Source: Escherichia coli
GTDB taxonomy: Bacteria; Pseudomonadota; Gammaproteobacteria; Enterobacterales; Enterobacteriaceae
Assembly: GCF_044324785.1 (NCBI RefSeq)
Contig: NZ_CP172127.1
DNA: 64,000 bases
Strand: one strand, 5' to 3'
This document shows, piece after piece, positions 15,659 through 34,101 of this stretch. The stretch's first letter is position 1. Every line of letters starts with the position of its first letter. The notes under the pieces are model-generated. The model searched no databases and was not told the origin of the DNA. It worked only from the letters and a program-made list of their open reading frames with translations. A program made the translations under genes and the position numbers.

Positions 15659-15667
15659 GACGGGTAT

Positions 15668-15692: not shown

Positions 15693-15698
15693 GACAGA

Positions 15699-16284: not shown

Positions 16285-18285
16285 TCATCCTTGTTGCTGA
16301 AGCATGGGGAATAATTGTTCGCAAAGTAAAACACCGTTATTCATTGCTTCTACCCGTGCCTCGCTTTCTGTATTACGAAATTGTGCCAACACATGTGCCA
16401 GCCGATAAAAACCCACCGCGGAGAGGTCATTCGCCAGCAACTCTGCCTGACCAATAGCACTCTGTTCCTGATAGCGCCAGCCGTTATGGAGCAGTTGAAT
16501 AAGTAACGCCTGGCAGCGCATCAGCAACTGATGAGCGGTAGACGGCACAGGCAAAACGCTGGCAGAAGGTAGCGGTGCCACAGGCGCAGTTTCTGCGTCC
16601 AGCGCCCAGGCGCGAGTTTTTGTCATCATCACCCGTGGTTCCAGTGTCAATTGCCCCTCTACAAAGCTGACAAAGCCAGAAACCAGACTCACGGGGTCGT
16701 CTGTTTGTTGCAAAAGCGCCGCCATGCGTTCAACGGCAAAAGGAGAACAGGCAGATGCCGGAAGGGATAACGTCAGCACATTATCTTCCCCTTCGCCGCT
16801 AATGACCTGCGCATCCAGTGTCTGGCGGCTGCTATCCCAACCAAGCGAAATACACTCCGCTACCGGCAGAATAAATAAGTTATCGACCTGGTTGAGTGGT
16901 CGTATGCAGGCGGGGGGACGCTGGCGTAAATATTCCCGCAAAGCCACAATGCCCGGCTGGCGCAACGGCGCACTCAACATTTGCCAGGCGTCTGGCGACA
17001 GTGGAACAACACTACTCAAGCGGTTGCGGGTAGCTAACAGCAGCTCGCCATCGGCACTGCGTTTTGCTGCTTGTGAAACAATTTGCCCACCCGCCAGTGC
17101 GCCAGCCTGAAAACTAAACAGCCGACGCGTCGCTGCCGGTGAGTTTTCCTGTTCGCTTCTCGGCCAACTACGCGAAAGGTGCAAAATACTGCCGGTGTCG
17201 GGATCGGTAAACCAGATGCGTAAACCATACTGCTCAATATCCTGCCAGCAACGCATACCTAAAGACACCAGCCGCAGATGATCAAGCTTTGCTTCTCCGG
17301 CAATGCCAGCGCCAACGACCGTGCGCCACGGCATGGGAGGAACTTCACCAACACTGTCGCGCCGGGCCATCTCTTGTGCACAATTTAATCGATTGTTTAA
17401 TGCCGCAAGCTGACATAAGCATTCTCCGGCATGATAGTGGCTGGCGCGGGCGTGGAAGGCATCAACGCTGGCGCGCAGTTGCCGTAGCGATTCACTCACC
17501 CAGCGCCAGTTGCAGCGTTCCGCCGCTTGCTGCGCGCGGCTGAAAGCAGCCTCGTAATGAATAAGCGGCTGGCTGATGCCGCCAAGCCATAACGCCTGGC
17601 TTAATTGCTGAACATATTGACGACACGCGTCGCCCTCATCGTTGGCAAACGGATCGTCAGATGATGTGACGTGTTCGCTGCGCATCTGCCAGATTAAATG
17701 AGTAAATTCCGCTTGCTGCGCTTTGGCCTGGGCAAAGGCCTGTACTGCCAGTACGACATGTTCGCAAAGTGTGCCGTCAATACAATCACAGCGTGCGAAA
17801 CGAATGCTGCTGCGGGAATAAAAACGTACATCGCTCATCGGTAAGCGGGCAGAGGGAATTTCGCCAGGCGTACAGAACAACTCAATGGTGATGCCTTTAG
17901 CGACCAGTGTCTGTGCGCGTTTGCGGGTGGCATCGGGCAGGGTAGCCAGTTCTTCCAGCCAGATTGCCGGATCCCACTCTTCTTCTTTTTCCGTAGGCTG
18001 GGTGGTGGCGCAAAGTCGCTGATAACTTAAAACCAGCATCACGCGATGGCGGCACATGCCGCTGGCCCCGCAGCTGCATTGAGCCTCTTTCAGTGCCTGA
18101 CCGTTCGCCAGCTGGGTGCGGACACCGTCACTGAAGGTGGCGATTAAAGCGCCGTTCTCATGGCTGATTTCCGGGACGTTGCCATTTTCCAGTTCTTTAA
18201 GGCTGCGCTTAACAAAACCGGCATTGCTTAACGCCGTCAAAGCTTGTGGTGTCAGTTCTAATAATTCCGGCCGTAGTGAATTCAT
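16285..18285 (-). CDS. yehQ: SWIM zinc-finger domain protein, function unknown
   Basis: 666-aa ORF; two CxCx(n)CxH motifs (CSCGASGMCRH, CDCIDGTLCEH); ATG overlaps yehP stop (ATGA); precise start not certain. Confidence 0.75.
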   Translation of the reverse strand: MNSLRPELLELTPQALTALSNAGFVKRSLKELENGNVPEISHENGALIATFSDGVRTQLANGQALKEAQCSCGASGMCRHRVMLVLSYQRLCATTQPTEKEEEWDPAIWLEELATLPDATRKRAQTLVAKGITIELFCTPGEIPSARLPMSDVRFYSRSSIRFARCDCIDGTLCEHVVLAVQAFAQAKAQQAEFTHLIWQMRSEHVTSSDDPFANDEGDACRQYVQQLSQALWLGGISQPLIHYEAAFSRAQQAAERCNWRWVSESLRQLRASVDAFHARASHYHAGECLCQLAALNNRLNCAQEMARRDSVGEVPPMPWRTVVGAGIAGEAKLDHLRLVSLGMRCWQDIEQYGLRIWFTDPDTGSILHLSRSWPRSEQENSPAATRRLFSFQAGALAGGQIVSQAAKRSADGELLLATRNRLSSVVPLSPDAWQMLSAPLRQPGIVALREYLRQRPPACIRPLNQVDNLFILPVAECISLGWDSSRQTLDAQVISGEGEDNVLTLSLPASACSPFAVERMAALLQQTDDPVSLVSGFVSFVEGQLTLEPRVMMTKTRAWALDAETAPVAPLPSASVLPVPSTAHQLLMRCQALLIQLLHNGWRYQEQSAIGQAELLANDLSAVGFYRLAHVLAQFRNTESEARVEAMNNGVLLCEQLFPMLQQQG

Positions 18286-19418
18286 GACTGAAGATTCTCC
18301 GCAAGCCAGGTCGCCAGTTCGCCCGGCGTCATGGCGGCTATTTGTGCGCCGACATTAACCAGCGCCTGGGCCGTATCGTGGTCATAGCAAGGTGTTGCGG
18401 TGCTATCGAGCGCCGCCAGTCCCAGCACTTTGACGCCGCTCTGGACACACGTTTTCACCTGATGCGTCAGCAATGATGATGAACCCCCTTCATAGAAATC
18501 GCTCACGAGGATAATGACGCTTTTCGCTGGTTGTTCAATAAGTTGCCGACCATACTCCACGGCACTGGCGATATTGGTCCCGCCGCCCAGTTGTACTTTC
18601 ATTAATAACTCTACTGGATCAGCAACGTCTGCCGTGAGATCAACGACGCTGGTGTCAAACGCCACCAGATGGGTACGAATGCCGGGTAACTGCCATAAAC
18701 AGGCCGCCATCACCGCAGAGTGGATCACCGAATCGACCATCGATCCGCTTTGATCAACCAGTAAGACCAGTTGCCATTGTTCGCTTTGGCGTTTAATGCG
18801 GCTGTTAAAGCGGGGGGATTCGATATACAACTTGCCGTGTTGCGGGTGCCAGTGTTGCAGGTTGGCGCGCAGAGTACTTTTGAAATCAAAGTTTCGCGCC
18901 AGTGGAATAAATGAGCGGCGACGGCGATCGCGGACACCAGAAAAAGCCTGGCGAACTTCCTTTGCCAGTCGCGCCATAATTTCTTCAACAACCTGGCGCA
19001 CTATCCGGCGGGCGGCAGCCAGCACTTCGGGATTCATCAGATGTTTGGTGTGCAAAACGGCGCGTAGCAGGCTTTCAGAAGGCTGCATACGTTCCAGCAC
19101 GTCGAGATTCGTCACCACATCTTCAATGCCGTAGCGCAGTACGGCATCGCTTTCCAGCCGCTCGATCACCTGTTGCGGAAACAGCGTGTGAATACTGTTG
19201 ATCCACTCAGGGGTGGTGAGATTTGAGTCACCTAATCCACCGGAGCGTTCACCACGCTGGAGCCGTTCAGGATCGCGCCCATACAGCCACTCCAGCGCGT
19301 GGTCTATCTGCCGGGCATTGTCATCCAGCCCACAAAGGGTCGTTTCTGCCGCTTCGCCAAGAATTAATCGCCAGCGTTGTAGCTCACGGGTGGTCAGAAG
19401 ATCGTTCAGTTCAGACAT
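18282..19418 (-). CDS. yehP: von Willebrand factor A (VWA) domain protein with MIDAS motif, function unknown
   Basis: 378 aa from MSELNDLLTTRELQRW...; MIDAS-like DQSGS in LLVDQSGSMVDSV; start overlaps yehM stop; track ORF extends upstream into yehM. Confidence 0.8.
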   Translation of the reverse strand: MSELNDLLTTRELQRWRLILGEAAETTLCGLDDNARQIDHALEWLYGRDPERLQRGERSGGLGDSNLTTPEWINSIHTLFPQQVIERLESDAVLRYGIEDVVTNLDVLERMQPSESLLRAVLHTKHLMNPEVLAAARRIVRQVVEEIMARLAKEVRQAFSGVRDRRRRSFIPLARNFDFKSTLRANLQHWHPQHGKLYIESPRFNSRIKRQSEQWQLVLLVDQSGSMVDSVIHSAVMAACLWQLPGIRTHLVAFDTSVVDLTADVADPVELLMKVQLGGGTNIASAVEYGRQLIEQPAKSVIILVSDFYEGGSSSLLTHQVKTCVQSGVKVLGLAALDSTATPCYDHDTAQALVNVGAQIAAMTPGELATWLAENLQS

Positions 19419-21690
19419 GGAAAACTCCCCAGTGTTGCAGCGATGCCAGTGCCTGCTGTTCGAGTTGTTGATGATGTGCAATGGCTTGCGGTGGACAATG
19501 CAACGGCATTTGCAGCGCTGAAACGGGAAGCTGTGCGAGCTGGTAATGCTCAAGCACCTGATGCGCCAGCGTCCCGCGTTCCCGTGGTGGTAGCCAGGCC
19601 ATCGCCGCACGTAAATCGGGCAGGGCGTTAATAAAATCGTCGTCACTCAGTTGATTTAAATGACTACTGAAACCGGCGATAAATGCCGGCTGACAGGCCA
19701 GTTGATGGCGGGCCAGCGCCAGCAAACCGTGCAGTGCCTCGCCGGATTGTGCCGGGGATAATTGCGCCAGCATCGTCAGCGCCGCTTCGGCACTGGCGTT
19801 GGGATGTTCCAGACGCATCAGTGCGCCAAGAGCCGCGCCGCGATCCAGCGCCGGGGCATGAATCGCCTGACTGCGGCGCTCCAGTAAGGCTACCGCCGCA
19901 GAAAGAGAAACGCCGGGTAAATTAACGCCGCTATGTAGATCGCGCAGGATATGGCAAAGCGCCTGCCAGCTATGCAGGTGAGCGTGAAACTCCTTTTCCT
20001 CCGGTCTGCCGTTGGATTCACACAGCCAGAGTGTGCGATCGATAGCCGCGCATAACGTCGTCTGTAATATCTGCGCGCCTTGCATACCGCTAATTTCATC
20101 CAGCCGCCATAAGGCGTATAGCACTTCCAGCGCCTGGCCCATTTCGGCAAACTGATTTTCCTGGGCGATTAATAATGTAAGTTGCTCCAGTAATTGTTGA
20201 CTGAAGGACGCCAGACCCGCTAACGCCGCCTGGCTAAGACATGTGGTGATACTGCCGATTCCACCCGCGTCCAGCATATCGGCTTCTAATTTATTGCGTG
20301 CGGCTTCCTGGAGTGTGGCACCAAAGCAGGCGGCCTCAATTAATGCCGCATGTTGGCTAAGCGGGCGGGTTAATTTCCAGCGTTCTTCACCGTTGCCTGC
20401 AAGTGTCAGTGTGCTTCCCTGCTGGCGTACAATCCCTGGGATCTCCAGTATTGCCAGCCGATGTAACACCTGACTTTGCGCTAGTCTATTGGGGTTAAAG
20501 CGATTTAAGGTAAGCTCCGCCGGAAGAGAGATTGCGGTACGTTCCAGTTCGCAGGTGACATCTTTTGGCAGAGGCGGTTGTGGCGTAGAAGGGGCAAGTT
20601 TACCGAATCCGTCACCCGCTAATGTGTCTATCAACGTTAGCAGAATCGGATCGGTATCGGGATGAATAACGCCGCGATAGCTCCACGGCAACGGCGCGTT
20701 CAAGGCTTCTTTAATCAGCGAGCCTGCTATGGCATCCAGCCAGTCAGTGCGTAACGGTAGTATATGACCGCGCAACTGTGCCAGCGCCATCGCATGCAGA
20801 TGAGCGGCAGCCATATCCGCTGTTGAAGCAGGCAAGTGGTGCTGGCGCAAACGGGTAAGAACCGTTTTCAGCAGTTGTTCACCTGCCTGCTGCAAGCCCC
20901 ACCGCCAGCACCAGTTTTGCCAGACCGGGGCAGGCATTCCTGAAAGGTATCCTGCCAGCACATCAAGGCGCTTTTCACTGTATGGCGTGAGATAGCAACC
21001 TGTAACGGCATCATCCAGTGAGAGCAATTCTGGCGTGTTAATTTCTTGCGGGCATTCGCGCCACATTTTTGCCAGTGCCGGAGCGTGCCAGCCTCCGCAG
21101 ACGACTAATACGTCGCCATTATTTTGCTGCATCGCCCATCCAATCCAGCGGGCCATAAAGGCTTCGCGCTGACGATTGAGTGCATCGCCGGAGGCGTCGC
21201 CCCGCAGTTGTACAAAATAGTGCGCCAGTGCAGAGGGTAATATAGTTTGCTGGCTTTCATCTTCGAACAAGTGATCCCACAGGGTGTCGCTGTTATCCAT
21301 GCGGGTGGCACGCAGCAGCAAGGTCTGGCTTTCCTCTTGCGTATCAGGCGAATTGTCCTCTTCTTCACTCTGTGCCCAGCAAGGCAAATCGATGAAGTAA
21401 GTTTGTGCCTGAATACGACGTGCGGCTTGTAGCGCCTGCCACTCCGGCGAAAATTCAGCAAATGGCGTCCAGGCACCACGCCCGGGGGCCGCACCGTCCT
21501 GATACTGGCAATAACTGTAAATAGCTACCGGAAGCTGGTGGGCTAACAACAGTTCGTCTACCCGGTCATTAAAATCAGCCGGGCCTTCAATCAACACGTA
21601 TCGTGGCCGCTGGCTTTCGATTAACGATTTCACCAGCCGGGCGCAGGCCGGACTATGATGCCGGATGCCGACAATTAACGGCTCGCTCAT
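19411..21690 (-). CDS. yehM: Large protein of unknown function (759 aa)
   Basis: ATG at 21690 preceded by GAGGAAAG, 10 nt after yehL stop; Leu/Ala/Gln-rich, no motif I can assign. Confidence 0.75.
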   Translation of the reverse strand: MSEPLIVGIRHHSPACARLVKSLIESQRPRYVLIEGPADFNDRVDELLLAHQLPVAIYSYCQYQDGAAPGRGAWTPFAEFSPEWQALQAARRIQAQTYFIDLPCWAQSEEEDNSPDTQEESQTLLLRATRMDNSDTLWDHLFEDESQQTILPSALAHYFVQLRGDASGDALNRQREAFMARWIGWAMQQNNGDVLVVCGGWHAPALAKMWRECPQEINTPELLSLDDAVTGCYLTPYSEKRLDVLAGYLSGMPAPVWQNWCWRWGLQQAGEQLLKTVLTRLRQHHLPASTADMAAAHLHAMALAQLRGHILPLRTDWLDAIAGSLIKEALNAPLPWSYRGVIHPDTDPILLTLIDTLAGDGFGKLAPSTPQPPLPKDVTCELERTAISLPAELTLNRFNPNRLAQSQVLHRLAILEIPGIVRQQGSTLTLAGNGEERWKLTRPLSQHAALIEAACFGATLQEAARNKLEADMLDAGGIGSITTCLSQAALAGLASFSQQLLEQLTLLIAQENQFAEMGQALEVLYALWRLDEISGMQGAQILQTTLCAAIDRTLWLCESNGRPEEKEFHAHLHSWQALCHILRDLHSGVNLPGVSLSAAVALLERRSQAIHAPALDRGAALGALMRLEHPNASAEAALTMLAQLSPAQSGEALHGLLALARHQLACQPAFIAGFSSHLNQLSDDDFINALPDLRAAMAWLPPRERGTLAHQVLEHYQLAQLPVSALQMPLHCPPQAIAHHQQLEQQALASLQHWGVFHV

Positions 21691-21700: not shown

Positions 21701-22789
21701 TCACGGCAGGCGGTGGCGAGCTTGATAATAAGCCTGCCAGTGAGCTTCTTTATGTGTAGCGACACGTTGTTCGAAGTAACGGCGCAGACGTGCGCGATCT
21801 TCTTCGTTATCTTTGACGATGGTTCCGGCAATACAGTCCACCAGGTCGGCTGGCTCCCCCGCGCGATTCGCTAAAAACCAGGCGCGGACGCCCACAGCGT
21901 GGGCCACGTTCACGGCTTCAGCGGTGGACATAATCGCTGTCAGTGTATCCATTGACGTTTTCTTTTCGCCGTTGGCACGCAGATCGCGGAAGGTGCGTAC
22001 CAGTAACTCCAGTACCGCGTCAGGCACTTTATGCGGAATACCGCTATGGGCCAACAAACGCGCCGAAGCACTGGCGACCAGTTCCAGCTCCTGGGCGAAA
22101 TCCATAATCGGAAAGACAGTTTCAAAATCGAAGCGACGCTTTAGCGCAGCACTCATTTCATTGACGCCGCGATCGCGGGTATTGGCAGTGGCAATAATAT
22201 TAAAGCCTTCCCGCGCATAGAGCTGACTGGCTTCACCAGTGAGTTCCGGCACCGTCATTACCCTGTCAGAAAGCATACCTAACAGACAGTCTTGTACTTC
22301 CAGCGGTGTACGCGTTATCTCTTCAAAACGGACAATTTTGCCGTCGCGCATTCCCTGGTAAAGCGGGGCAGGGACCAGCGCTTCCGTTGACGGACCATGG
22401 TTGATAAGCAGGGCGTAGTTCCAGCCATACTTGATTTGATCTTCGGTGGTAGATGCGCCGCCCTGGATGGTTAACCCGGCATCGCCGCTAATAGCGGTTG
22501 CCAGTAATTCAGACAGGAGAGATTTTGCGGTGCCAGGTTCCCCCACCAACATCAAACCGCGCCCGGTAGCGAGAGTGACTAACATGCGTTCGACAGCGGA
22601 GGGACTGATCACGACTTTACGGCTAATATTTTGCGCTTCGTCGCCAAGGATAAAAGCACGGGCCGCAGGCAAACTTAACTGCCAACCTGGCGGGCAAGGT
22701 GCGTTATCATTTTGTTTTAATTTTGCCAGTTCATCGGCGTATAACACAGCGGCAGGCGGACGCTGCAGATGTTTATTCTGCGGTGACAT
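21701..22789 (-). CDS. yehL: AAA+ ATPase (MoxR/CbbQ-like, AAA_5-type), function unknown
   Basis: 362 aa from MSPQNKHLQRP...; Walker A GEPGTAKS; Walker-B-like hhhFEEITR. Confidence 0.8.
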   Translation of the reverse strand: MSPQNKHLQRPPAAVLYADELAKLKQNDNAPCPPGWQLSLPAARAFILGDEAQNISRKVVISPSAVERMLVTLATGRGLMLVGEPGTAKSLLSELLATAISGDAGLTIQGGASTTEDQIKYGWNYALLINHGPSTEALVPAPLYQGMRDGKIVRFEEITRTPLEVQDCLLGMLSDRVMTVPELTGEASQLYAREGFNIIATANTRDRGVNEMSAALKRRFDFETVFPIMDFAQELELVASASARLLAHSGIPHKVPDAVLELLVRTFRDLRANGEKKTSMDTLTAIMSTAEAVNVAHAVGVRAWFLANRAGEPADLVDCIAGTIVKDNEEDRARLRRYFEQRVATHKEAHWQAYYQARHRLP

Positions 22790-22981: not shown

Positions 22982-23010
22982 GAATAAATTATAACCATAT
23001 CCACACTCCA

Positions 23011-23219: not shown

Positions 23220-23309
23220 ATGGACACGCTGACACAAAAGTTAACCGTGCTCATTGCTATACTGGAGCTATTAGTGGCTCTGTTACGGTTGATTGATTTG
23301 TTGAAGTAA
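23220..23309 (+). CDS. zorO: ZorO-like type I toxin, 29-aa hydrophobic peptide (copy 1)
   Basis: MDTLTQKLTVLIAILELLVALLRLIDLLK; AAGGAGA SD 7 nt upstream; TisB-like amphipathic helix; below ORF-track cutoff; which copy is zorO vs zorP not resolved. Confidence 0.7.
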   Translation: MDTLTQKLTVLIAILELLVALLRLIDLLK

Positions 23310-23330
23310 CGGGCAAATTGAAACGCATCT

Positions 23331-23354
23331 AAGGGGGAAAACCGCTTCCCCCTT
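23331..23354 (+). terminator. Hairpin terminator after toxin ORF copy 1
   Basis: aagggggaa-aaccgc-ttccccctt perfect 9-bp stem. Confidence 0.5.
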
Positions 23355-23508
23355 TAATAAAATGATTACTGTTTTTATTAATTCATCATATAACTCATTT
23401 TTATTTATAAATTCATCGATTTTATATTCAACGTACCATTTGACCGGGATGTGAATATTTATGGTGGGCTATTGGCAAAAAATATCTGGAAAGTAGATCG
23501 CAGAAAAT

Positions 23509-23589
23509 AAAAAAACCTGCTGGTGAGGCAGGTTCTTTTATTTACTACTTTGATGTTAAGTTACTGATAGTGCAACATGGCATCTCAAC
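23509..23589 (-). ncRNA. OrzP/OrzO-like antitoxin sRNA, copy 2 (boundaries inferred)
   Basis: Same architecture shifted by 608 bp; 5' pairing region differs from copy 1 at several positions and matches its own cis toxin UTR better. Confidence 0.45.
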
Positions 23590-23618
23590 GAACGAATTAT
23601 AACCACCTCTGGACAGTG

Positions 23619-23646
23619 TTGCAATTAAGATAATGAGATTTATAAT
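23619..23646 (+). promoter_or_regulatory. Sigma70-type promoter of toxin mRNA, copy 2 (TTGCAA-16-TATAAT)
   Basis: TTGCAA 23619-23624, TATAAT 23641-23646. Confidence 0.5.
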
Positions 23647-23827
23647 CCTGACTGTTGGGAAGTTGCGCCGGATCGAACCCATTTCAAGTCCTGGCTACCG
23701 GACGGGTGGTGCCGCAGGTAGTGCTCTGATCCGGAGTGCAACATGGCGACTCAACAAACGTAAACCAGTGTCGACAGGCAGTGTAAGGGTAAGGTGCTGG
23801 TGTTGCGCTCCTTAATAAGGAGAGCGG

Positions 23828-23917
23828 ATGGACACGCTGACACAAAAGTTAACCGTGCTCATTGCTGTACTGGAGCTATTAGTGGCTCTGTTACGGTTGA
23901 TTGATTTGTTGAAGTAA
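23828..23917 (+). CDS. ZorO/ZorP-like type I toxin, 29-aa peptide (copy 2)
   Basis: MDTLTQKLTVLIAVLELLVALLRLIDLLK (I14V relative to copy 1); same SD. Confidence 0.7.
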   Translation: MDTLTQKLTVLIAVLELLVALLRLIDLLK

Positions 23918-23936
23918 CGGGCAAATTGAAACGCAT

Positions 23937-24344
23937 CTAAGGGGGAATACCGTTTCCCCCTTTAATAAAGCTATACTCGTCATACTTCAAGTTGCATGTG
24001 CTGCGACTTGAATTATCTAGAGTATATAATTCTATTTGTTGGTTGAATATATTCTGTAGTTCACAATTAAAAATTACTATTACAGGTTCAGGTGATTCGC
24101 CTCGTAATTTTTGCTCATCAATAAACTCATCTCTTATATAAATCAACGCATCATTTATTAGCGGGTCGACATCTTCTCGATCACGTTGATGAAATGTTGG
24201 ACGTAGCCGGAATCGCTCCAGCCGGTAGACGGAGCCTGTAAATAATTCAGAGCGTTTATGGATCTCAAGCCTGAAGGAAAACGGCTCTTCAGGTACAGGG
24301 GCCTCATAGTCGTAAATAGTGACCAGCTCTTTTTGCACGATCAT
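23937..24344 (-). CDS. yehK: Small protein of unknown function
   Basis: 135-aa ORF (MIVQKELVTIYDYEAPVPEEPFSF...) 60 nt downstream of yehI; C-terminal codons lie in the terminator hairpin. Confidence 0.6.
   Translation of the reverse strand: MIVQKELVTIYDYEAPVPEEPFSFRLEIHKRSELFTGSVYRLERFRLRPTFHQRDREDVDPLINDALIYIRDEFIDEQKLRGESPEPVIVIFNCELQNIFNQQIELYTLDNSSRSTCNLKYDEYSFIKGGNGIPP
23939..23962. terminator. Hairpin after toxin copy 2, abutting the yehK stop codon (convergent)
   Basis: aagggggaa-taccgt-ttccccctt; yehK stop at 23937-23939 on the opposite strand. Confidence 0.5.
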
Positions 24345-24404: not shown

Positions 24405-27400
24405 TTAATGGAAAATAACGTCGGGTGCGCTTAACGCTTCACTCAAATCAAACACATCAAGTTCGGCAAAAGTGACAGATTTATTCTCGCGGTATACATG
24501 AAGAGAACGGAAGCTCATTAGCGCTTTGCTATCAACATTGTAGTGGTTAAAACCGGATGAAAACTTAAGGACCAGCCGGTACTCGCCCAGGTCATAGACA
24601 AATGCGTTCTCATAGCCTGACTCCCAGCCTTTGTATCGCATTCCCATAAGTTGCCCAACGGTAGCAGATTTACCTTCCCAGCGATTCAAACTATTACTGG
24701 CTGACTCGTCAGGCGTGAGCAGCACTGTGCGCCGTGCCAATTGGCGAAAAGGCGGCATAATTTCGTAATCGGCAAAAAGCTGTGCAAACTCACTGCGCAT
24801 TTCTGCTGCCATTTCTAACGGGTGGGCAATGCCAATCAGAGCATCGGCAGGCAGGTCAATGGGCTCATCTTGCTCATTGCAGAACTCCCCCTCAGCGGCC
24901 ACACGAAAGGCGTTGAGTAAACGACGCGGTTCATTTGCCGGATAAACACCCCATATTAATCGCTGAGTAACCAGACGGGTAAAGGGATGATTAACAAACA
25001 GAGAATGAAAATCTGCCAGCGACCAGCGTCGGGTGGTGCGCAGGGCAGTTTCAAGACGCGGGAGCAGGTTTTTGCTCACCTGAGTGGCATCTTTTTTTAG
25101 CCCTTTTAGTCGGGCCAGTGCCTCGGGTGCTTTCAGTTGATCGTCATCGGCGCGCAACCGGGGAACGCTTTTCTGGCGAACGTTTTGCTGATCAAAGATA
25201 ACCGGGTTAAGGTTTTCATCGAAGCGAACGGTAAATTGCCGTGGACCAAAATCAAAAATCAACGCCTGCGGATCATCAAGACCCAGTGTTGGGACTAATC
25301 TGTCCGCTAACTGTTCCTGGCTTAGCCCGCGATTTTCTGCGACCACCTGAAGAAATTCCGCCGCGTTATCACGTAAGGGGCGGGATTTCGCCCGTTGCGA
25401 TATATGATGCAGCTGTATCAGTGCCATATCATTATTCATCTGAGTAAGGATGTTCAGGCCGCTGACGGCACGGGCAGATTTGCCTTCCTGTGGCCAGGCA
25501 AGGATCTGTGTCGTCAGATCCCGTGCCGTGCTTTCGTCGCCAAAGAGACTTAACGCCAGAAATGCCCAGTTGTCTTTTGCGGGAGCACCAGCTTGTTGCC
25601 ACGCGGTGAAAAGATCCCAGGCAAAAGCTGCCAGCGTTTGCGGCTGGCAGAAAGTTTTCAGTTGTTCCAGTCCGCTATAAAAACGTCCGCCCTGGGTAAA
25701 GCACAGCATTTCGCCGATAATTTCCAGAGCGTCATCGGTAACAGGCTGATTATTAGTGATAAGGCGCGGCCTGGACCACATTGCCGGCTGCCAGAAATCA
25801 GGGGCTTTTGGAATGCGTGTCGGGTAAATCTCTATTGGACTCTGTTTAAGTAATTGCTCCAGGGCAGGCCATACATCTTTACGCTGCCAGCGGTTTGCCA
25901 CGGTTTGCAGTAACTCGCCATGTCCCTGTTCGTAAAGTAAACGCAGGGCAAGTAATGCAGCTTCGCTATTATCGCTGGATTTGGTGAAGACAAGAGGGAT
26001 AAGTGCAGTAGCCGTATGTTCCGGCCAATGTAAAATCCACTGGCGAGCCAGATCACGCTGCGCCGCGAAACGTCGCCAGACGCGGGCAACGGGCAGTGCC
26101 AGTTCGGTTGCGCCGAAATTTAAAATTAACGGAAATGTTTCTTTTGGACGATGTGAAAAAGCCAACAGCAGACCTGGTAGAGCATCCAATCCGAAGATAC
26201 TGAGAAAATAGTCCTCACCCGCAGACAGATGCTTTTTCTCATTGATACGTAGCCAGAAAGTCAAAGCCATCTCACGCGGCAACTGCGCCAATAAATACTG
26301 GTTCCAGATACTCTTTTCCCGACGATAGCGTGAGTAGCTGTCATTTTCCCATATGTTAATTAACACTTCTACGTGACCGCTGCGAAGCGCCTGTTCTGCT
26401 AATTGAGCTTCCGGGGAGCTCCAGCCATTCATGATCTCTTCAACCCGCCCTGGGTAGTAATGCCACTGAACAATGAGTGAATTGCGTGCAGCATCCAGTT
26501 TTCCGGGGAGTATATAATTCAAAAACAGCCATACATCATCTCCAAAACCCAGCTCCTGTAGTACAACTCGTCCACTTTTATGTTCCATGCGTTCCGCAAG
26601 AGATTCCGTGCTGAAATAACGGGCAGACTCAGTGGCGGCAAGCCTCTCTCGTTCGCCCGGTTGCCAGTAAACTTGCGGCGTTAATTCGAACGGTGCCAAA
26701 TCAAGACGTGGAACTGTCATTTTTTTCTTACTACGCCACGGTGGTGAAACGAGGATTTCAGGCATTTGGCTGTTATCGGTGCTATCAATAACCGTTTTGG
26801 GCGGTGCCGATAAATAACTATTCAGCACTGCCTGGGCTTGAGTACTTAACCACGGCATCACCTCTTCTGCCAGTTGTGGCTGCGATGCCATCAGCGTTTG
26901 TAACAGCGTACGCCAGAATTCATCACGTGCTTTTTGCTGTGCAGGCAGCTTTTTGTCTTCGATGATTGGATAACCTGGGCGGGCTGGTGGTTCTTTTAAC
27001 GCCAGCAGTTCTGCCAGTGCGGTGAGTGTCGCATGGGGGAAGTTTTTACTGTATTTAGCCACACGTTGCAGGCTGGGTTTGTTTTTATCAGCAACTAACA
27101 GCAAGGTGCGGATGACTTGCGGATGGTTAATTTGTACCAGCAGACTGCCGCAATCTTCTTTATGAGCATACATTGCCAGGCGCGGAACGGCTGCCAGTCC
27201 TTGTTCGCGCAAAAGGGAGGCGCAGGCCGCGTAGCCGAAGCGGTTTTCTTGTGACATGTAGCTGGCTTCGCGATCGCTAAATACGTCCAGGCCCCAGTAT
27301 CGTTCGAGTTTTTTTACCGCTCTGGGGTCATTAGCAACAACTTTTAACCACTCCTTAGAATGAAAATGAGTCCGCGGGCATTCAAGGCCTACCAACTCAT

Positions 27401-28037
27401 TGGCGATTTCTGGTTTTTCCGGGAGGAGCAGCGCAATAAAAGGGCGGCGAACTTTGGTTATTCCTGGCAGTGCGGCAATGAGTTTGTCGGCGCAACGCTG
27501 CCAGCTGCTTTCCTCTGCCAGAGAGAGATGCTTACGCAGTCGGAGATCGAATTCGTTATAGGTTTCTGAGCGATAACCATAGCCATAATCCTCGTTCTGA
27601 TACTGCAATGTCACTAGCAGAGGATCACTCTCATAACACCGTGCAATAAACTGGCGTGCAATCACCACCTCAGTCGCATATTCCAGTCCCTCTTGTTGGA
27701 CGATTTCGTCGAGCAACTGTTGGCTATCATTTTGCGCGATACAGGTTAGCGCCGCCATTGTCCGGGCCGGAACTGAGGGTTTGTGTTCTCCGATCAAGTT
27801 GATGGCCTGCGTAATGGCCGACTGCCACTCCAGTGAAAAATTTTCATAACGCCAGACAATGTTTTTTTTCTTCTCAGCTTTTTGTAGCAATTCATCACCC
27901 AGTGTCTGGATGAGGCTTTCAGTGATAACAGGCACCGGTTCGCCCGGCCAACTGCGATGGCTGAGCGGCGTTTTGCCTTTTTTATATTTCAGTTCCACTT
28001 GGGCGTTATCCGCCAGCCACGGTAATTCCTTGTCCAT
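24405..28037 (-). CDS. yehI: Large DUF4132-type protein of unknown function (1210 aa), paralog of molR
   Basis: Long blocks alignable with molR product (e.g. RLRKHLSLAEESSWQRCADKLIAALPG... and FTAWQQAGAPAKDNWAFLAL...DFGPRQFTVRFDE); start 9 nt after molR stop. Confidence 0.8.
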   Translation of the reverse strand: MDKELPWLADNAQVELKYKKGKTPLSHRSWPGEPVPVITESLIQTLGDELLQKAEKKKNIVWRYENFSLEWQSAITQAINLIGEHKPSVPARTMAALTCIAQNDSQQLLDEIVQQEGLEYATEVVIARQFIARCYESDPLLVTLQYQNEDYGYGYRSETYNEFDLRLRKHLSLAEESSWQRCADKLIAALPGITKVRRPFIALLLPEKPEIANELVGLECPRTHFHSKEWLKVVANDPRAVKKLERYWGLDVFSDREASYMSQENRFGYAACASLLREQGLAAVPRLAMYAHKEDCGSLLVQINHPQVIRTLLLVADKNKPSLQRVAKYSKNFPHATLTALAELLALKEPPARPGYPIIEDKKLPAQQKARDEFWRTLLQTLMASQPQLAEEVMPWLSTQAQAVLNSYLSAPPKTVIDSTDNSQMPEILVSPPWRSKKKMTVPRLDLAPFELTPQVYWQPGERERLAATESARYFSTESLAERMEHKSGRVVLQELGFGDDVWLFLNYILPGKLDAARNSLIVQWHYYPGRVEEIMNGWSSPEAQLAEQALRSGHVEVLINIWENDSYSRYRREKSIWNQYLLAQLPREMALTFWLRINEKKHLSAGEDYFLSIFGLDALPGLLLAFSHRPKETFPLILNFGATELALPVARVWRRFAAQRDLARQWILHWPEHTATALIPLVFTKSSDNSEAALLALRLLYEQGHGELLQTVANRWQRKDVWPALEQLLKQSPIEIYPTRIPKAPDFWQPAMWSRPRLITNNQPVTDDALEIIGEMLCFTQGGRFYSGLEQLKTFCQPQTLAAFAWDLFTAWQQAGAPAKDNWAFLALSLFGDESTARDLTTQILAWPQEGKSARAVSGLNILTQMNNDMALIQLHHISQRAKSRPLRDNAAEFLQVVAENRGLSQEQLADRLVPTLGLDDPQALIFDFGPRQFTVRFDENLNPVIFDQQNVRQKSVPRLRADDDQLKAPEALARLKGLKKDATQVSKNLLPRLETALRTTRRWSLADFHSLFVNHPFTRLVTQRLIWGVYPANEPRRLLNAFRVAAEGEFCNEQDEPIDLPADALIGIAHPLEMAAEMRSEFAQLFADYEIMPPFRQLARRTVLLTPDESASNSLNRWEGKSATVGQLMGMRYKGWESGYENAFVYDLGEYRLVLKFSSGFNHYNVDSKALMSFRSLHVYRENKSVTFAELDVFDLSEALSAPDVIFH

Positions 28038-28046: not shown

Positions 28047-31000
28047 TTATTCAAACAGGGCTTCAATATCGTTAATTAGCTCGCTGGCGGTGATGGCATC
28101 GAGTACGGAGAACTGCGCTTCCTGTGTTGAATTACTCCCCCAGCCATAGCTTTCTGCTTTGCCTTCCCATAGCCACAGCTTGCTTAAGAGTTGCTCGGCA
28201 CTGAGTTCGGCTGGCGACATGCCGACCGCAAAACCTTCATCGATTTCCATGATTAACGACCAGCGGCCCAGAGGTTTGATCATCCAGCCGATCCAGCCTC
28301 CATCCTGCGGGGTGCCCTTTATCCAGCCTTTATTCGCCAGCCCCATGACCCGACCGCTCGGGCATTTTCTGCCTGCCCAGTGGGTCAGTTCGCTGGCGTT
28401 GCGCTCGGCTTCTGTCAGGGCGTAACTGTTACGGTCAAGCTGACGGAACGGTGGTAGCAGTTCATAGTCGGCAAAAAGCTGACCAAAGGCGGCAGCATCC
28501 GTTGGTGATATTTCCAGAACGTGAGGAATGCCGATAGAGATATCGCCTTCCGGCAGGGTGAAAAGATCATCGTCAGCGGTGCTGTAGCTGTTATCTTCCG
28601 CCACGCGAAAGCAAGCCAGTAGCTCGTTTTCGGTGCTATAAACGCCCCAAATCAGACGGCGGGTTAAGTGACGAACCAGCGGATGCTCAACCAGGAAGAG
28701 CTGGAAGTTTTCCGGCGACCAGCGGCGGCGCAGGCACATGGCGGATTCCAGCCTTGCTACCTGCTGGGCGGCGATGGTACGCGCATCTTTTTTCAGCAAT
28801 TTGTAGCGGTTAACAGCATCGTTCGCCTGTGATTCATCATCGCTTTTGTTTGGTTTGGGTAAATCTTTCAGGCGGCTGCCGGAAGCGTCACGCACAAACG
28901 GTTTTAAGGTTTCATCAAAGCTGACGGTGAACTGGCGTGGGCCGAAATCCAGCAGCAACGAACCGTTATCATCCAGACCGAGATTCGGTGCTAACCGATC
29001 TTCAAGCTCCGCCACCGTGAGCTCGCGGCTTTCGGCAATGTCGGCAATTTTCTCTTTCGCCCGCTCCTGTAATGCTTTGAATTTCAGTTTCTGGGCGATG
29101 CCGTTAAGCTGCATCAGGGCGATATCACTACCGATAGCAGCGAGAATATCCAACCCAACGGTGGCGCGTTTATGCTGAGATTCGCCAGGCCAGGCGCGGA
29201 TTAATGGCGTCAGTTTGCGGGCGGTGTCATCGTTGCCGAGAACACCTAACGCAATGAACGCCCAGCTTTCTTTCGATGGCGCGCCCGCAGTCAGCCAGGC
29301 GGTAAACAGATCCCAGGCAAATTCAGCCAGAGAGTCAGAGGTACAGGCATCTTTCACCTGCAATAATCCCGGATACAGAGCCTCTTCCAGAGGGAAGCGG
29401 AGCATTTCACCGAGGTGGAGGAGGGCGTTATCTGGCAGTGATTGGGCGTTTGCTTTTAATACCGGGCGCGTCCAGAGCGATGGCTGATAAAAGGCCGGAA
29501 GAGTGGGGATTTTTGTCGGGTGATTATCTAAGGCATCGAGCGCAAGCAGAGCGTTCACCGCATCTGTTACTTCCGGCTGGTTATAACGCCGGGCGATTTC
29601 TTGCAGTAATAGCTGATGACCGTTTTCGGTAAGCATACGCAAGGCAGCGCGGGCGTTATCCTGTGCTTCACCGGCTTTGCCGAGCGCCGAAGGTAGCAGG
29701 CCGGTAATGGCGTGTTCCGGGTATTTCAGCAGCCAGGTGCGGGCGTCTTGTCGTAGGGTTTTGAGTTTGTTGAAGGCGCGGGCGATCAGTGGCGCTAATT
29801 CGATAGCCGCAAAATATTGTGCTACAGGCAGAGCTTCTTGTGGATAGCGTGAAAAGGAGTGAATAAAACCCTGTAACCCAGCGAGTTGCAGGTGTGTCAT
29901 GACAAACTCGACACCGACGTGTGGCTCTTTACTAAGGACATTCCACGCCTGCGCTGTTTTTTCGATAGGCAGGGCGGCTAACATGTAAAGCTGCCATTCC
30001 CGTTGATAGGAGTGCCAGAAGGTTTTAAATTCGCTGATCAGCGCAGAATAATCTCCCCTCTGCCAGAGTTCTACAACAGCATCAGACGCTTTCATAGAGT
30101 GGCCATTATTCCAGCGATTGAAACCCAGACGTGTCAGGTAGTTCTGAATATCCTCTTTTTGGCCGATGTCTATTTGATGTGCGTGCCAGCGATGCCTTGC
30201 ATGAATCTCTTTTTCTGCCGTCTCGGTCAATGTGCAGCATGACTCCAGCGGTAATGGCGTTAAATCCAATACCGGCATTACAGATTTTTTCTTTTTCGAA
30301 AGCCAGGGCGGTGAGACTAATACGGCAGGCAGCATATCGGCGCTGGCATGGTTTGAGGGCTGTGTCAGTTGTTGCTGGCATGATTTCAGTACGGCAACTG
30401 CGGGTGTTGAGAGCCAGGGAGTGACCTGTTCTGCTAGTGCCGGTTGCGAGATAAGCATCGTCATCAGCATAATGCGCCAACTATTCTCTTCTTTTTGCGC
30501 AAGAAGTTCCGCCAGTGCAGCCAGTGCTGCGTGTGGGAACGCAGCGCAAGCCTTAGTCATTCGTTCATGGCAGCGTTTAGTTTTGCCAGACACACGTATA
30601 AGTAGCATTAATGCTTGTGGGTGATTGATCTCTTCGAGAATACTTCCACAAAGATCAGCATAAGCATAGGGGGCGAAGCGAGCGATTCCGGCAATCCCTT
30701 GCTCCTGCAAAACGGTGACATTCCAGATGCAACCATGGTAATAGTCATTAAAAAGGTCGTACGCGCAATAAGATTCCAGTGCTTTGAGCAAGGAAGATTC
30801 TTGAACAACAAGTTTCAGCCATTCAACAGTTTGGACATTTTTCTGCTTCAGTAACTGTCGTGCGACTTCTTCTGCAATCTCCGGGCGTTCCGGTAGCATT
30901 AGCGCTACCATCGGTTGTTGAACGGGAGGAATATCAGGCAAAGCTGTAATGAATTTATCTACACAGCGTTGCCACAAAGTTTCTTCTGCTAGAGCCAAAT

Positions 31001-31796
31001 GCTTACGCAGTCGAACGTCAAAGGGGGTAACACAATGTGCGTGGTTTAATAATGGCTGAAAAGTAATGTGTATGCTTGTTCTGTGATAAGTGCAATCGAA
31101 CGAGATATATTGCATGGCAATAAACATATCCACGGCAAATTCTAGTCCGTAGACATAGACAATTTCATCCATGAGTTCAGGGCATTCGCCCCAGAATTTA
31201 CGCGAAACCAGACCAACCTGTACAGCCAACGCAGCAGGAGAAAGTGGACCATTAGCGAGAGCTTCATTGATATTCTGCTGCCAGTTAGCAGAACATGCAC
31301 TGAAATCGTATGTTGTTAATTTTCCTGATAGATTATGAATATCCTGACCTAAATTCATAAGGAGGCTGTCTTGTGGTTCGCTTACAGCATCCCCAGGAAA
31401 ACGTCGGGAAGGTAAGGCCTCCTGAGACTTTTTCTCCGATAGATGGATAGTGGAATCATCTGTAAGCCACGGGCATGGTGTCTCAGCAGGTTCAGCAACC
31501 ATACTTTGGTCAAATACGACAGTGGTTTCTGCCACGCCAGTTGTATCTACTTCGATCGTTTCTATTTTGATTGCGGGTTGGGATGGCGAAGATAATTCTT
31601 CCACATATCCCTTCTTCACCTTCTCCGCAATCAGCTTCAGTTCCGCTTTTTCCGCAGCCGCAGTATCAGCAAAGCTTTTTACCTGACTTTGCCCTTTGGT
31701 GCCAACTTTTCCCCAACTGATATGCAACTCGTTTCCCTGTTGCTCAACCGCCCAGAATTTATGTGATTTTTCGCCCTGAAAGATAAAGTGTCTCAT
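28047..31796 (-). CDS. molR: Large WGR-domain + DUF4132-type protein (1249 aa), intact
   Basis: N-terminal WGR-like motif (FQGEKSHKFWAVEQQGNELHISWGKVGTKGQ); C-terminal paralogy with yehI; continuous ORF. Confidence 0.8.
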   Translation of the reverse strand: MRHFIFQGEKSHKFWAVEQQGNELHISWGKVGTKGQSQVKSFADTAAAEKAELKLIAEKVKKGYVEELSSPSQPAIKIETIEVDTTGVAETTVVFDQSMVAEPAETPCPWLTDDSTIHLSEKKSQEALPSRRFPGDAVSEPQDSLLMNLGQDIHNLSGKLTTYDFSACSANWQQNINEALANGPLSPAALAVQVGLVSRKFWGECPELMDEIVYVYGLEFAVDMFIAMQYISFDCTYHRTSIHITFQPLLNHAHCVTPFDVRLRKHLALAEETLWQRCVDKFITALPDIPPVQQPMVALMLPERPEIAEEVARQLLKQKNVQTVEWLKLVVQESSLLKALESYCAYDLFNDYYHGCIWNVTVLQEQGIAGIARFAPYAYADLCGSILEEINHPQALMLLIRVSGKTKRCHERMTKACAAFPHAALAALAELLAQKEENSWRIMLMTMLISQPALAEQVTPWLSTPAVAVLKSCQQQLTQPSNHASADMLPAVLVSPPWLSKKKKSVMPVLDLTPLPLESCCTLTETAEKEIHARHRWHAHQIDIGQKEDIQNYLTRLGFNRWNNGHSMKASDAVVELWQRGDYSALISEFKTFWHSYQREWQLYMLAALPIEKTAQAWNVLSKEPHVGVEFVMTHLQLAGLQGFIHSFSRYPQEALPVAQYFAAIELAPLIARAFNKLKTLRQDARTWLLKYPEHAITGLLPSALGKAGEAQDNARAALRMLTENGHQLLLQEIARRYNQPEVTDAVNALLALDALDNHPTKIPTLPAFYQPSLWTRPVLKANAQSLPDNALLHLGEMLRFPLEEALYPGLLQVKDACTSDSLAEFAWDLFTAWLTAGAPSKESWAFIALGVLGNDDTARKLTPLIRAWPGESQHKRATVGLDILAAIGSDIALMQLNGIAQKLKFKALQERAKEKIADIAESRELTVAELEDRLAPNLGLDDNGSLLLDFGPRQFTVSFDETLKPFVRDASGSRLKDLPKPNKSDDESQANDAVNRYKLLKKDARTIAAQQVARLESAMCLRRRWSPENFQLFLVEHPLVRHLTRRLIWGVYSTENELLACFRVAEDNSYSTADDDLFTLPEGDISIGIPHVLEISPTDAAAFGQLFADYELLPPFRQLDRNSYALTEAERNASELTHWAGRKCPSGRVMGLANKGWIKGTPQDGGWIGWMIKPLGRWSLIMEIDEGFAVGMSPAELSAEQLLSKLWLWEGKAESYGWGSNSTQEAQFSVLDAITASELINDIEALFE

Positions 31797-31902
31797 TCTG
31801 CATCCCTGTAATTTTATCCAGTTGAATGCTGATGCTACCAGTATTTATGCGGGTTAGAGAGAGACAAAATCGCAAGAAAACAACTTTAGGAATTTATAAA
31901 GA

Positions 31903-31926
31903 AAAGGCGCTGTCGATGCAGCGCCT
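31903..31926 (-). terminator. Rho-independent terminator after metG
   Basis: aaggcgctgtcgatgcagcgcctt hairpin 10 nt below metG stop, followed on minus strand by T-rich tract. Confidence 0.6.
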
Positions 31927-31936
31927 TGAAGGGGGA

Positions 31937-33970
31937 TTATTTCACCTGATGACCCGGTTTAGCACCGGCATCCGGGCTTAGCAGGAAAATATCTTTCCCG
32001 CCAGGACCGGCAGCCATCACCATGCCTTCAGAGATACCGAAGCGCATTTTACGTGGTGCCAGGTTAGCCACCATAATGGTGTGACGACCAATCAGTGCCT
32101 GCGGATCCGGGTAGGCAGAACGAATGCCGGAGAAGACATTGCGTTTTTCACCGCCGAGATCCAGCGTCAGGCGCAGCAGTTTGTCAGAACCTTCAACAAA
32201 CTCTGCGTTTTCAATCAGCGCCACGCGCAGGTCAACTTTAGCAAAGTCGTCAAAGGTGATGGTTTCCTGAATCGGATCATCTGCCAGTGGGCCAGTAACT
32301 GGCGCGGCAGCTGCTTTCACTTCTTCTTTAGACGCTTCCACCAGTGCTTCAACCTGCTTCATATCGATGCGGTTATACAGCGCTTTGAACGGATTCACTT
32401 TGTGGCCCAGCAGCGGTTGCTGGATACCATCCCAGGTCAGTTCCGTATTGAGGAATGCTTCTGCGCGCTCGGTCAGTTTCGGCAGTACCGGCTTCAGGTA
32501 AGTCATCAGCACGCGGAACAGGTTGATGCCCATCGAGCAAATTGCCTGCAGGTCGGCATCGCAGCCTTCCTGTTTCGCCACCACCCACGGAGCCTGTTCA
32601 TCGACATAGCGGTTAGCCAGATCAGCCAGCGCCATGATTTCGCGGATCGCTTTACCAAATTCGCGGCTTTCCCATGCTTCACCAATCACTTCGGCGGCAT
32701 CAGTGAAGGTTTTGTACAGTTGAGGGTCAGCCAGTTCGCTTGCCAGCACGCCGTCAAAACGCTTGTTGATAAAGCCAGCGTTACGGGATGCCAGGTTAAC
32801 CACTTTATTCACGATATCGGCATTCACACGCTGAACGAAATCTTCCAGGTTGAGATCGATATCATCAATGCGCGAAGAGAGTTTCGCAGTGTAGTAGTAA
32901 CGCAGGCTGTCGGCGTCAAAATGATTCAGCCAGGTGCTGGCTTTAATAAAGGTACCGCGAGACTTAGACATCTTCGCGCCGTTCACCGTCACATAGCCAT
33001 GAACAAATAGGTTGGTCGGCTTGCGGAAGTTGCTGCCTTCCAGCATGGCAGGCCAGAACAGGCTGTGGAAGTAAACGATATCTTTACCGATGAAGTGGTA
33101 CAGCTCGGCGGTGGAATCTTTCTTCCAGTATTCATCGAAGCTGGTGGTGTCGCCGCGTTTGTCGCACAGATTCTTGAAGGAACCCATGTAGCCAATCGGC
33201 GCATCCAGCCAGACGTAGAAATATTTGCCCGGTGCGTTCGGAATTTCAAAACCGAAGTACGGCGCATCGCGGGAGATATCCCACTGTTGCAGGCCAGATT
33301 CAAACCACTCCTGCATTTTGTTTGCCACTTGCTCCTGCAACGCGCCGCTGCGGGTCCATGCCTGCAGCATTTCGCTGAAAGAGGGCAGATCAAAGAAGAA
33401 GTGTTCAGAATCACGCATTACCGGCGTAGCACCAGAAACCACCGATTTCGGCTCGATCAATTCAGTCGGGCTGTAGGTCGCGCCGCAGACTTCGCAGTTA
33501 TCGCCGTATTGATCCGGGGATTTACATTTCGGGCAGGTGCCTTTCACAAAACGGTCCGGCAGGAACATGCCTTTTTCCGGATCGTACAGCTGAGAAATAG
33601 TGCGGTTTTTAATAAAACCGTTTTCTTTCAGGCGAGAGTAGATAAGTTCTGACAACTGGCGGTTCTCTTCGCTGTGCGTCGAGTGATAGTTGTCATAGCT
33701 GATGTTAAAGCCTGCGAAATCAGTCTGATGCTCCTGACTCATTTCGCCAATCATCTGCTCCGGGGTGATACCAAGCTGCTGAGCTTTCAGCATGATCGGT
33801 GTACCGTGGGCATCGTCGGCGCAGATGAAGTTGACCTCGTGGCCGCGCATTCGCTGGTAACGGACCCAGACATCAGCCTGGATGTGCTCCAGCATATGGC
33901 CGAGGTGGATTGAGCCGTTAGCGTACGGCAGTGCGCACGTCACCAGAATTTTCTTCGCGACTTGAGTCAT
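31937..33970 (-). CDS. metG: Methionyl-tRNA synthetase
   Basis: 677 aa from [29 protein letters not shown] (HxGH class I motif), KMSKS present, zinc knuckle CPKC...CEVC. Confidence 0.95.
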
Positions 33971-34101
33971 AGTAGGCATTACTTCTTAATAGTGAAAAGG
34001 GGTTAGATAGTACCAAATGGGAAAATGTTAAGTAAGTACTTCTCTATATTCTTCAGGTAAACTATCAGCTGATGGTTTATCTATACAAAAAAGGAGTCGG
34101 G

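Follow-up and report, generated by a model that had tools for sequence, protein, structure and literature searches.

The molR gene of the window, the 64,000-nucleotide stretch of Escherichia coli DNA analyzed here, is a genuine, intact, and selectively maintained gene at the metG–yehI position, and it belongs to a gene cluster that is kept across several phyla. Its intactness is a correct but ordinary finding, intact molR being the norm in wild E. coli, a norm to which the window conforms; the cluster itself is widespread, unstudied, and unusually variable. The most likely role of MolR is that of a variable adaptor for the YehL ATPase machine, under SOS control in enteric bacteria. The features of the locus are listed in the table.

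Features of the molR locus and the downstream cluster in the window (positions count from the first nucleotide of the window).
Feature	Position	Strand	Description
metG intrinsic terminator	31904..31927	-	lies ahead of the molR promoter region (31797-31903)
LexA (SOS) box	31806..31821	-	CTGGATAAAATTACAG; about 10 nt 5' of the ATG, same as the K-12 molR box
molR/yehH-type gene	28047..31796	-	1249 aa plus stop; WGR and DUF4132 domain-containing protein
WGR domain (aa 5-67)	31596..31784	-	PF05406, E 2.4e-18; PDB sequence match 2ra8_A, E 1e-16
Variable cassette V1 (aa 51-407)	30576..31646	-	18-50% aa identity to K-12-type, CFT073, and ST131 alleles; GC about 0.44
V261 codon (GTT)	31014..31016	-	aligns with K-12 codon 275 (TGA); TTA in intact K-12-type alleles
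Variable cassette V2 (aa 507-670)	29787..30278	-	95-100% to ST131 copy B; 26-65% to K-12-type and CFT073
CGG TTA (R934 L935)	28992..28997	-	frame shifted in K-12 by an extra G (GAT CGG G TTA)
Conserved C-terminal alpha/beta domain (aa 925-1249)	28050..29024	-	contains DUF4132
Pfam DUF4132 (aa 973-1158)	28323-28880	-	E 1e-50
yehI, MolR paralogue	24405..28037	-	1210 aa, 37% identical, without WGR; begins 9 nt past the molR stop
yehL, MoxR-type AAA+ ATPase	21701..22789	-	AAA_5
yehM	19411..21690	-	DUF5682
yehP, von Willebrand A protein	18282..19418	-	VWA_CoxE-type
yehQ, SWIM zinc-finger protein	16285..18285	-	full length, 666 aa

The sequence-only reading had described molR as an intact gene of 1249 codons, and the ORF listing of the window bears this out: the frame runs unbroken from ATG to TAA on the minus strand, which the reading had not named, and its translation contains one stop only, at the end. 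A 3750-nt ORF is well outside chance expectation. That this is a genuine gene follows from its Pfam domains, its end-to-end homologues, the presence of the identical protein on 283 public contigs, and its substitution pattern. BLASTP alignments extend from end to end with homologues of about 1220–1330 aa from Klebsiella, Erwinia, Iodobacter, Massilia, and other bacteria, and the dN/dS ratios of 0.11–0.15 in the conserved parts of the gene and 0.14–0.27 within one cassette type indicate purifying selection. The choice of start codon is backed by a Shine–Dalgarno motif (AGGGA) 5' of the ATG and by the N-terminus MRHFI[FY]Q, which is common to most alleles compared, with the differing N-termini MKTY/MKHF found in the ST131 B copy and in SC418. 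Orthology of the locus is supported by the shared gene order metG, molR, yehI, yehK, yehLMPQ and by the common promoter.

MolR opens with a WGR domain at its N-terminus (PF05406; score 66.5 bits, cutoff 22). This is followed by some 800 residues of HEAT-like helical solenoid, which includes 2 hypervariable cassettes, and by a conserved C-terminal half that closes with DUF4132 (PF13569; score 172 bits, cutoff 27, whole profile from 1 to 179 covered). It is colinear over its full length with other members of the WGR–DUF4132 family, which comprises 5968 cluster representatives at 50% identity, and residues E962, H1038, H1043, D1076, and H1092 of the C-terminal domain are invariant. The best 120 matches in the protein homologue search were all Escherichia alleles; distant relatives were taken from a genome scan. 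Only the WGR domain was matched in PDB sequence and profile searches, the C-terminal alpha/beta domain having no solved or informative structural relative, and NCBIfam yielded only partial matches below threshold. No DNA-binding regulator domain or fold was recognized in MolR, in conflict with the designation “MolR family transcriptional regulator.”

Comparison with other alleles showed that the window gene is not a repaired version of the K-12 gene, but a distinct, mosaic allele at this locus. Both genes lie between metG and yehI, and their C-terminal 315 residues are 96% identical; however, the intact K-12-type protein has 1264 aa rather than 1249 and carries other cassettes at aa 51–407 and 507–670 (26–65% identity), and the first 936 residues of the window and K-12 alleles are only 64% identical. 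Cassettes V1 and V2 assort independently among alleles. Synonymous sites are saturated between cassette types, so that dN/dS across types is uninterpretable with regard to positive selection. The contrast between a variable N-terminal and a constant C-terminal half is seen both within E. coli and across the family: compared with the window protein, identity is 0.23–0.26 in the N-terminal half versus 0.53–0.59 in the C-terminal half, the latter being 45–58% identical across phyla in the genome scan.

The fragmentation of the K-12 reference copy, which the sequence-only reading had stated, is evident in the RefSeq annotation of MG1655, where yehF (b2115, 274 aa) is followed by the pseudogene yehH (b4499), both formerly known as molR_1/2/3. 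Alignment of MG1655 to close intact relatives placed exactly 2 lesions, a nonsense change at codon 275 (TTA to TGA, record position 2197297) and an additional G (GG to GGG) at gene nucleotide 2846 (record position about 2199319). Thus, of the frameshifts expected from that reading, a single one (+1 G) was located, the other lesion being a nonsense codon. In addition, a premature amber codon in K-12 yehQ cuts the product to 614 aa compared with 666 aa in the window, where all cluster genes are full length. The proposal that the window copy is the better starting point for functional work is strengthened by the yehQ amber as far as the case against K-12 is concerned, but for K-12 work a closer counterpart of the K-12 gene exists: the intact K-12-type allele (1264 aa; for example, in strain 2014C-3599) is 99.3% identical to K-12 at the DNA level.

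Intact molR was found in 9 of 10 complete E. coli genomes sampled evenly, and the locus is present at its syntenic chromosomal position in 5412–5418 of 5426 genomes, with the K-12-type stop in 706 and the K-12-type frameshift in 352. Pseudogenes have arisen independently in K-12 and its relatives, in both O157:H7 copies, and in KK05-19. Insertion sequences and transposons also interrupt the locus, and lesions affect yehI, yehP, yehK, and yehQ across various strains (see also PMC9334617); this frequency of pseudogenes shows that the cluster is dispensable in many lineages.

We compared 67 homologous loci from Gamma-, Beta-, and Alphaproteobacteria, Myxococcota, Acidobacteriota, Actinomycetota, and Geobacterales. 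In these, yehL and yehM were adjacent in 50 loci, with yehP also present in 45 and yehQ in 43, so that neighboring MoxR AAA+ and VWA genes are linked in 45–50 of the 67. The cluster, comprising at least 1 WGR–DUF4132 gene followed by yehL, yehM, yehP, and yehQ, is accordingly kept across several phyla. Most linked loci have yehLMPQ directly 3' of the WGR–DUF4132 gene or genes on the same strand, several Alphaproteobacteria have the order yehL-yehM-molR-yehP-yehQ, and loci without yehLMPQ mostly belong to long tandem arrays or sit on short contigs. Gene order thus points to a link between MolR and YehLMPQ. The tandem WGR–DUF4132 paralogues number between 1 and at least 7. In Escherichia, molR is the first gene of the cluster, and yehK and a zor-orz type I toxin–antitoxin insertion are located between yehI and yehL. 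YehI resembles MolR in its solenoid and DUF4132 build, and the two are colinear, at 37% identity, for about 1150 residues; however, YehI has neither the WGR domain nor the linker, its start corresponding to MolR residue 109, and the two proteins differ at the far C-terminus. A further, A-type paralogue beside metG (in ST131, O157:H7, and others) shares the MolR architecture, promoter, and LexA box, whereas its sequence is only 18–88% identical along its length; it occurs in 1630 of 5426 genomes, but neither in the window nor in K-12.

Because metG ends in an intrinsic terminator, molR has its own promoter region (31797–31903). All strains compared share this region, including a LexA box of the CTG-N10-CAG type, at about 99% identity, and the window differs from K-12 by 1 substitution in 156 aligned bases, the LexA box being identical. 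K-12 molR has been listed among the genes with a known SOS box (PMC6590174), and its promoter, mapped in K-12, is activated by BglJ–RcsB (PMC3950696). A simple sigma-70 scan 5' of molR detected no canonical promoter, a result compatible with dependence on an activator, although not evidence for it. The box is kept at −25/−26 in Escherichia species, Klebsiella oxytoca, and K. grimontii. It is absent 5' of the Erwinia homologues, and no equivalent was found in the more distant homologues checked; SOS control is hence not a property of the family.

The best overall explanation, which we regard as probable by a narrow measure, combines an intact gene with MolR and YehI acting as adaptors or sensors of the YehL–YehP machine, SOS-controlled in enteric bacteria. 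MolR and YehI would be interchangeable subunits of a YehL–YehP remodeling motor: the conserved C-terminal half of MolR would dock on the machine, the variable N-terminal solenoid would recognize a variable partner, and the WGR domain, by analogy with that of PARP, may contact nucleic acid. Predicted LexA control of the first gene in Escherichia and Klebsiella would allow DNA damage to switch the system on. On this view, MolR is not a molybdate-responsive transcription factor. The separation of yehI from yehL in Escherichia, the missing LexA box 5' of the Erwinia homologues, and the frequent pseudogenes of the cluster speak against the model.

Several features of the locus could also be accommodated by an anti-phage or anti-mobile-element conflict system, in which hypervariable tandem WGR–DUF4132 proteins sense invaders and YehLMPQ forms the signaling or effector machine. 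Cassettes that are 18–50% identical within one species beside an approximately 99% identical promoter, their independent assortment, the tandem paralogue count of 1 to at least 7, frequent and independent inactivation, and a type I toxin–antitoxin pair within the cluster would all be in keeping with such a role, and the Aravind group has reportedly proposed other vWA–MoxR systems as conflict systems. We nevertheless consider this reading unlikely. The seven cluster proteins together matched 0 families of PADLOC-DB 2.0, and no effector domain (nuclease, protease, TIR, etc.) was recognized; the locus is syntenic, chromosomal, and near-universal in E. coli rather than a mobile island; and homologues were found in 0 of 50,697 phage records and in only 33 of 72,556 plasmid records. 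Moreover, given the saturated synonymous sites, the divergence is accounted for by old alleles or by exchange between paralogues and does not require recent positive selection. We entertain as a tentative possibility that MolR/YehI and YehLMPQ constitute a phylum-spanning machine in which amplified, cassette-shuffled WGR–solenoid sensors of nucleic acid or invaders feed a MoxR–VWA–SWIM motor, SOS-induced in enterobacteria; such a machine would have been overlooked partly because of the 3 lesions in K-12 (a TGA and a +1 G in molR, and an amber codon in yehQ).

The CoxD/CoxE pair matures the Mo–Cu site of CO dehydrogenase, and the CoxE-type VWA domain of YehP and the MoxR ATPase YehL, together with the transcriptional regulator name that is still propagated, might be taken to mean that MolR regulates molybdate metabolism or that the cluster matures an enzyme with molybdenum or another metal cofactor. 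Since MolR is devoid of a DNA-binding regulator fold, “molybdate regulator” is a historical name, and this interpretation appears highly improbable. We regard it as equally improbable that molR is open by descent only and decaying functionally, which would render its intactness in the window biologically meaningless. The independent pseudogenes in K-12 and relatives, O157:H7, and KK05-19, along with the insertions and other cluster lesions, could be read in this way, but the low dN/dS (0.11–0.15), the conservation of the C-terminal half across phyla, the 5968 family clusters, and the intact gene in 9 of the 10 sampled genomes argue against it.

The value of the intact molR is practical rather than conceptual. 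K-12 is unsuited for studying the locus, whereas the window cluster is wholly intact, and K-12 knockout collections are blind to the function of the system because of the 2 molR lesions and the yehQ amber. What stands out is the size of the family (about 6000 clusters at 50% identity), its tight linkage to MoxR, VWA, SWIM, and DUF5682 genes across phyla, and, in E. coli, the very old shuffled cassettes beside a near-invariant promoter with predicted SOS control. A survey of the open-access literature on DUF4132, DUF5682, the yeh genes, and WGR/SWIM/MoxR/vWA, in which text matching was partly blurred by unrelated words, retrieved no functional study, and the yeh cluster is a reasonable target for function discovery.

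Known systems offer further points of comparison. The WGR domain of PARP enzymes contacts broken DNA, and MolR shares with these enzymes the Pfam WGR match and, in the PDB sequence search, a weak match to the WGR domain of PARP3, but has none of the PARP catalytic and helical domains; by extrapolation from PARP and from a proposal of the Pfam author, the MolR WGR domain may bind DNA breaks or nucleic acid. MoxR ATPases with VWA partners remodel specific target complexes. One of the 7 MoxR subfamilies has YehL as its type member, and chaperone-like roles with VWA partners have been described for MoxR proteins (PMC3893208). The placement of yehL beside yehP parallels the MoxR–VWA pairing of RavA–ViaA, CoxD–CoxE, NorQ–NorD, and CbbQ–CbbO, whereas the DUF5682, SWIM, and variable-copy WGR–DUF4132 partners set the yeh cluster apart from these characterized pairs.

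The molR gene of the window is real and intact, as the sequence-only reading had proposed: ORF listing and translation give a single ORF of 1249 codons running from an ATG start to a TAA stop, and Pfam places a WGR domain (residues 5–67) and a DUF4132 domain (residues 973–1158) in its product, both with scores far over threshold. The gene occupies the K-12 "molR" position, flanked by metG, which has a terminator of its own, and by the paralogue yehI, followed by yehK, yehL, yehM, yehP, and yehQ, all on the minus strand; every gene of this cluster is full length, and an identical MolR protein is already present on 283 public contigs. As a query, metG returned 219 plasmid matches among E. coli records, a surprising result for a gene encoding a housekeeping tRNA ligase.

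Features of the window and of the compared loci (window positions unless stated otherwise)
Feature	Position	Strand	Remark
Peptidase-S11 RNA motif	2490-2570	+	Rfam, gathering threshold
yehQ	16285-18285	-	GAG at site of K-12 TAG
yehK-yehL spacer	22856-23936		
OrzO-P RNA, first	22901-22974	-	
zor toxin ORF, 29 aa	23220-23309	+	
OrzO-P RNA, second	23509-23582	-	
zor toxin ORF, 29 aa	23828-23917	+	
yehK ORF	23937-24344	-	135 codons
yehI	24405..28037	-	molR paralogue, 1210 aa; flanks molR, opposite side from metG
molR	28047..31796	-	1249 codons
molR, residues 925-1249	28050-29024		
R934-L935	28992-28997		equivalent of K-12 lesion 2
Cassette V2	29787-30278		residues 507-670
Cassette V1	30576-31646		residues 51-407
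V261	31014-31016		equivalent of K-12 lesion 1
metG terminator	31927..31904		
metG	31937..33979		flanks molR
TPP riboswitch	42839-42935	+	Rfam, gathering threshold
K-12 yehQ TAG	22943-22945 of K-12 locus sequence		
Tandem WGR-DUF4132 genes, ST131 strain 2822	12541-20115 of its locus sequence		

The yehK–yehL spacer of the window holds two tandem zor-orz type I toxin-antitoxin units, with the toxin ORF sequence MDTLTQKLTVLIA[IV]LELLVALLRLIDLLK; such units were described in O157:H7 and are missing from MG1655 (PMC2887945). The window yehK ORF, counted from the earliest start codon that follows the upstream stop, is longer than the 105 aa annotated in K-12: residues 1–105 of K-12 YehK align to window 24344..24030, and the ORF extends ~90 nt further 3', which is probably related to the differing spacer.

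The statement that molR is fragmented in K-12 is borne out by the MG1655 annotation (NC_000913.3), which lists yehF (b2115, 274 aa) and the pseudogene yehH (b4499) at the locus. The proposed alignment was run with the near-identical natural strain LR-58-1 and with the intact K-12-type allele of strain 2014C-3599 (1264 aa, 99.3% DNA identity to K-12), and it located the damage, although as a single nonsense mutation plus a single frameshift, not as multiple frameshifts. K-12 molR thus bears two defined lesions: codon 275 reads TGA in place of the TTA of intact alleles, and an extra G at gene nt 2846 changes GAT CGG TTA to GAT CGG GTT. Exact 61-mers across each lesion, searched in 5426 complete genomes, found the nonsense version in 706 and the frameshift version, about half as frequent, in 352, which indicates that the nonsense mutation is an older polymorphism, also carried by natural isolates (LR-58-1 and strain 81). 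The identifiable frameshift-allele strains seen (ER1709, AML001_ev01, and TUM22775) are all K-12 or laboratory-derived; C439 was not placeable. K-12 yehQ also carries a GAG>TAG change that costs its last 52 residues, the ST131 gene, like that of the window, having GAG; the exact amber sequence occurs in 348 of the 5426 genomes, close to the number for the molR frameshift.

An intact molR is not unusual in E. coli. Ten genomes picked at regular intervals along the ranking comprised nine with an intact gene and one with an internal stop, and the gene is also intact in CFT073, ST131 strain 2822, SC418, and 2014C-3599. The claim of an intact gene is correct, but already known and ordinary. Decay of molR recurs through independent events: neither of the two copies in O157:H7 F8798 is intact, one copy is split in KK05-19, IS5 interrupts the gene in HL15, and an ST131 sublineage has a resistance transposon in it (PMC9334617). 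Other cluster genes can be pseudogenes in otherwise intact strains, with frameshifts or stops in yehI (SC418, 2014C-3599, and RL465) and frameshifts in both yehP and yehK (ST131 2822).

The window gene is a mosaic allele, not a repaired K-12 gene. Its protein is 64% identical to that of K-12 over residues 1–936 and 96% identical over residues 935–1249, and the gene was matched across 80% or more of its length in just 154 of the 5426 genomes (best match, 97% identical). Comparing it in sliding windows with nine alleles (DNA or protein) delimited two variable cassettes, V1 and V2, with 18–65% identity between types among E. coli alleles; these assort independently, window/window, window/K-12, K-12/window, and B-type (ST131 copy B)/window combinations all occurring. 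The backbone (WGR core and residues 408–506 and 671–1249) is 85–100% identical across alleles, the A-type paralogue excepted, and five strains share ~99% identity across the 140-bp promoter region. Synonymous sites are saturated between cassette types, dN/dS is 0.11–0.27 within a type and in the backbone, and GC is 0.44 in V1 versus 0.55 in the backbone. Family-wide, V1 and V2 are again least conserved and residues 671–1249 most conserved. Some E. coli, such as ST131 strain 2822, carry a tandem pair of WGR-DUF4132 genes in addition to yehI; the extra, A-type gene adjoins metG in 1630 of the 5426 genomes and is missing from the window and K-12.

A LexA box, CTGGATAAAATTACAG, lies ~10 nt 5' of the molR ATG, with the same sequence as in K-12. 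Escherichia species, Klebsiella oxytoca, and K. grimontii retain the box at this position; it is missing upstream of the Erwinia homologues, and no equivalent was found in front of the more remote homologues examined. molR is included in a list of genes with known SOS boxes (PMC6590174). BglJ-RcsB activates the molR promoter, whose activity H-NS does not repress (PMC3950696).

Beyond E. coli, molR is part of a conserved multi-gene module. Scanning a single genome for each species found 67 homologous loci, among others in Escherichia, Klebsiella, Erwinia, Cupriavidus, Massilia/Duganella, Xanthomonadales, Mycobacterium, Myxococcales, Holophagales, and Methylobacterium, with C-terminal halves 41–94% identical to that of the window protein. 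Homologues of yehL and yehM are adjacent in 50 of the 67, joined by yehP in 45 and yehQ in 43; in most linked loci the yeh genes directly follow the last DUF4132 gene on the same strand, and most unlinked loci lie inside long tandem arrays or on short contigs. Massilia and Duganella carry arrays of 5–7 WGR-DUF4132 paralogues in ~22 kb, several ending at yehLMPQ homologues; the largest has seven genes in 22 kb (Massilia).

AlphaFold models based on alignments of 61–71 homologues were confident for residues 76–924 (pLDDT 90, pTM 0.81) and 925–1249 (pLDDT 93.4, pTM 0.87). In the latter region, polar residues invariant among 71 homologues include H1038, H1092, D1076, E962, D986, R954, and R1047, with H1043 almost invariant; judging from conservation, they are candidates for a metal- or ligand-binding site. 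Domain and defence-model searches of the protein detected neither a regulator or enzyme fold nor a match to a defence-system model, and a role for MolR as a molybdate regulator is highly improbable. The cluster acting as a conflict system is a live alternative, albeit an unlikely one. The family numbers 5968 cluster representatives at 50% identity, is almost absent from plasmids, and was not found in 50,697 phage records. The biology around molR is under-explored. From domain logic and gene order, we infer that MolR and YehI would serve as variable adaptor or sensor subunits of a motor composed of YehL, a MoxR AAA+ ATPase, and the VWA protein YehP, with the WGR domain touching nucleic acid and the system probably SOS-timed in enterics.
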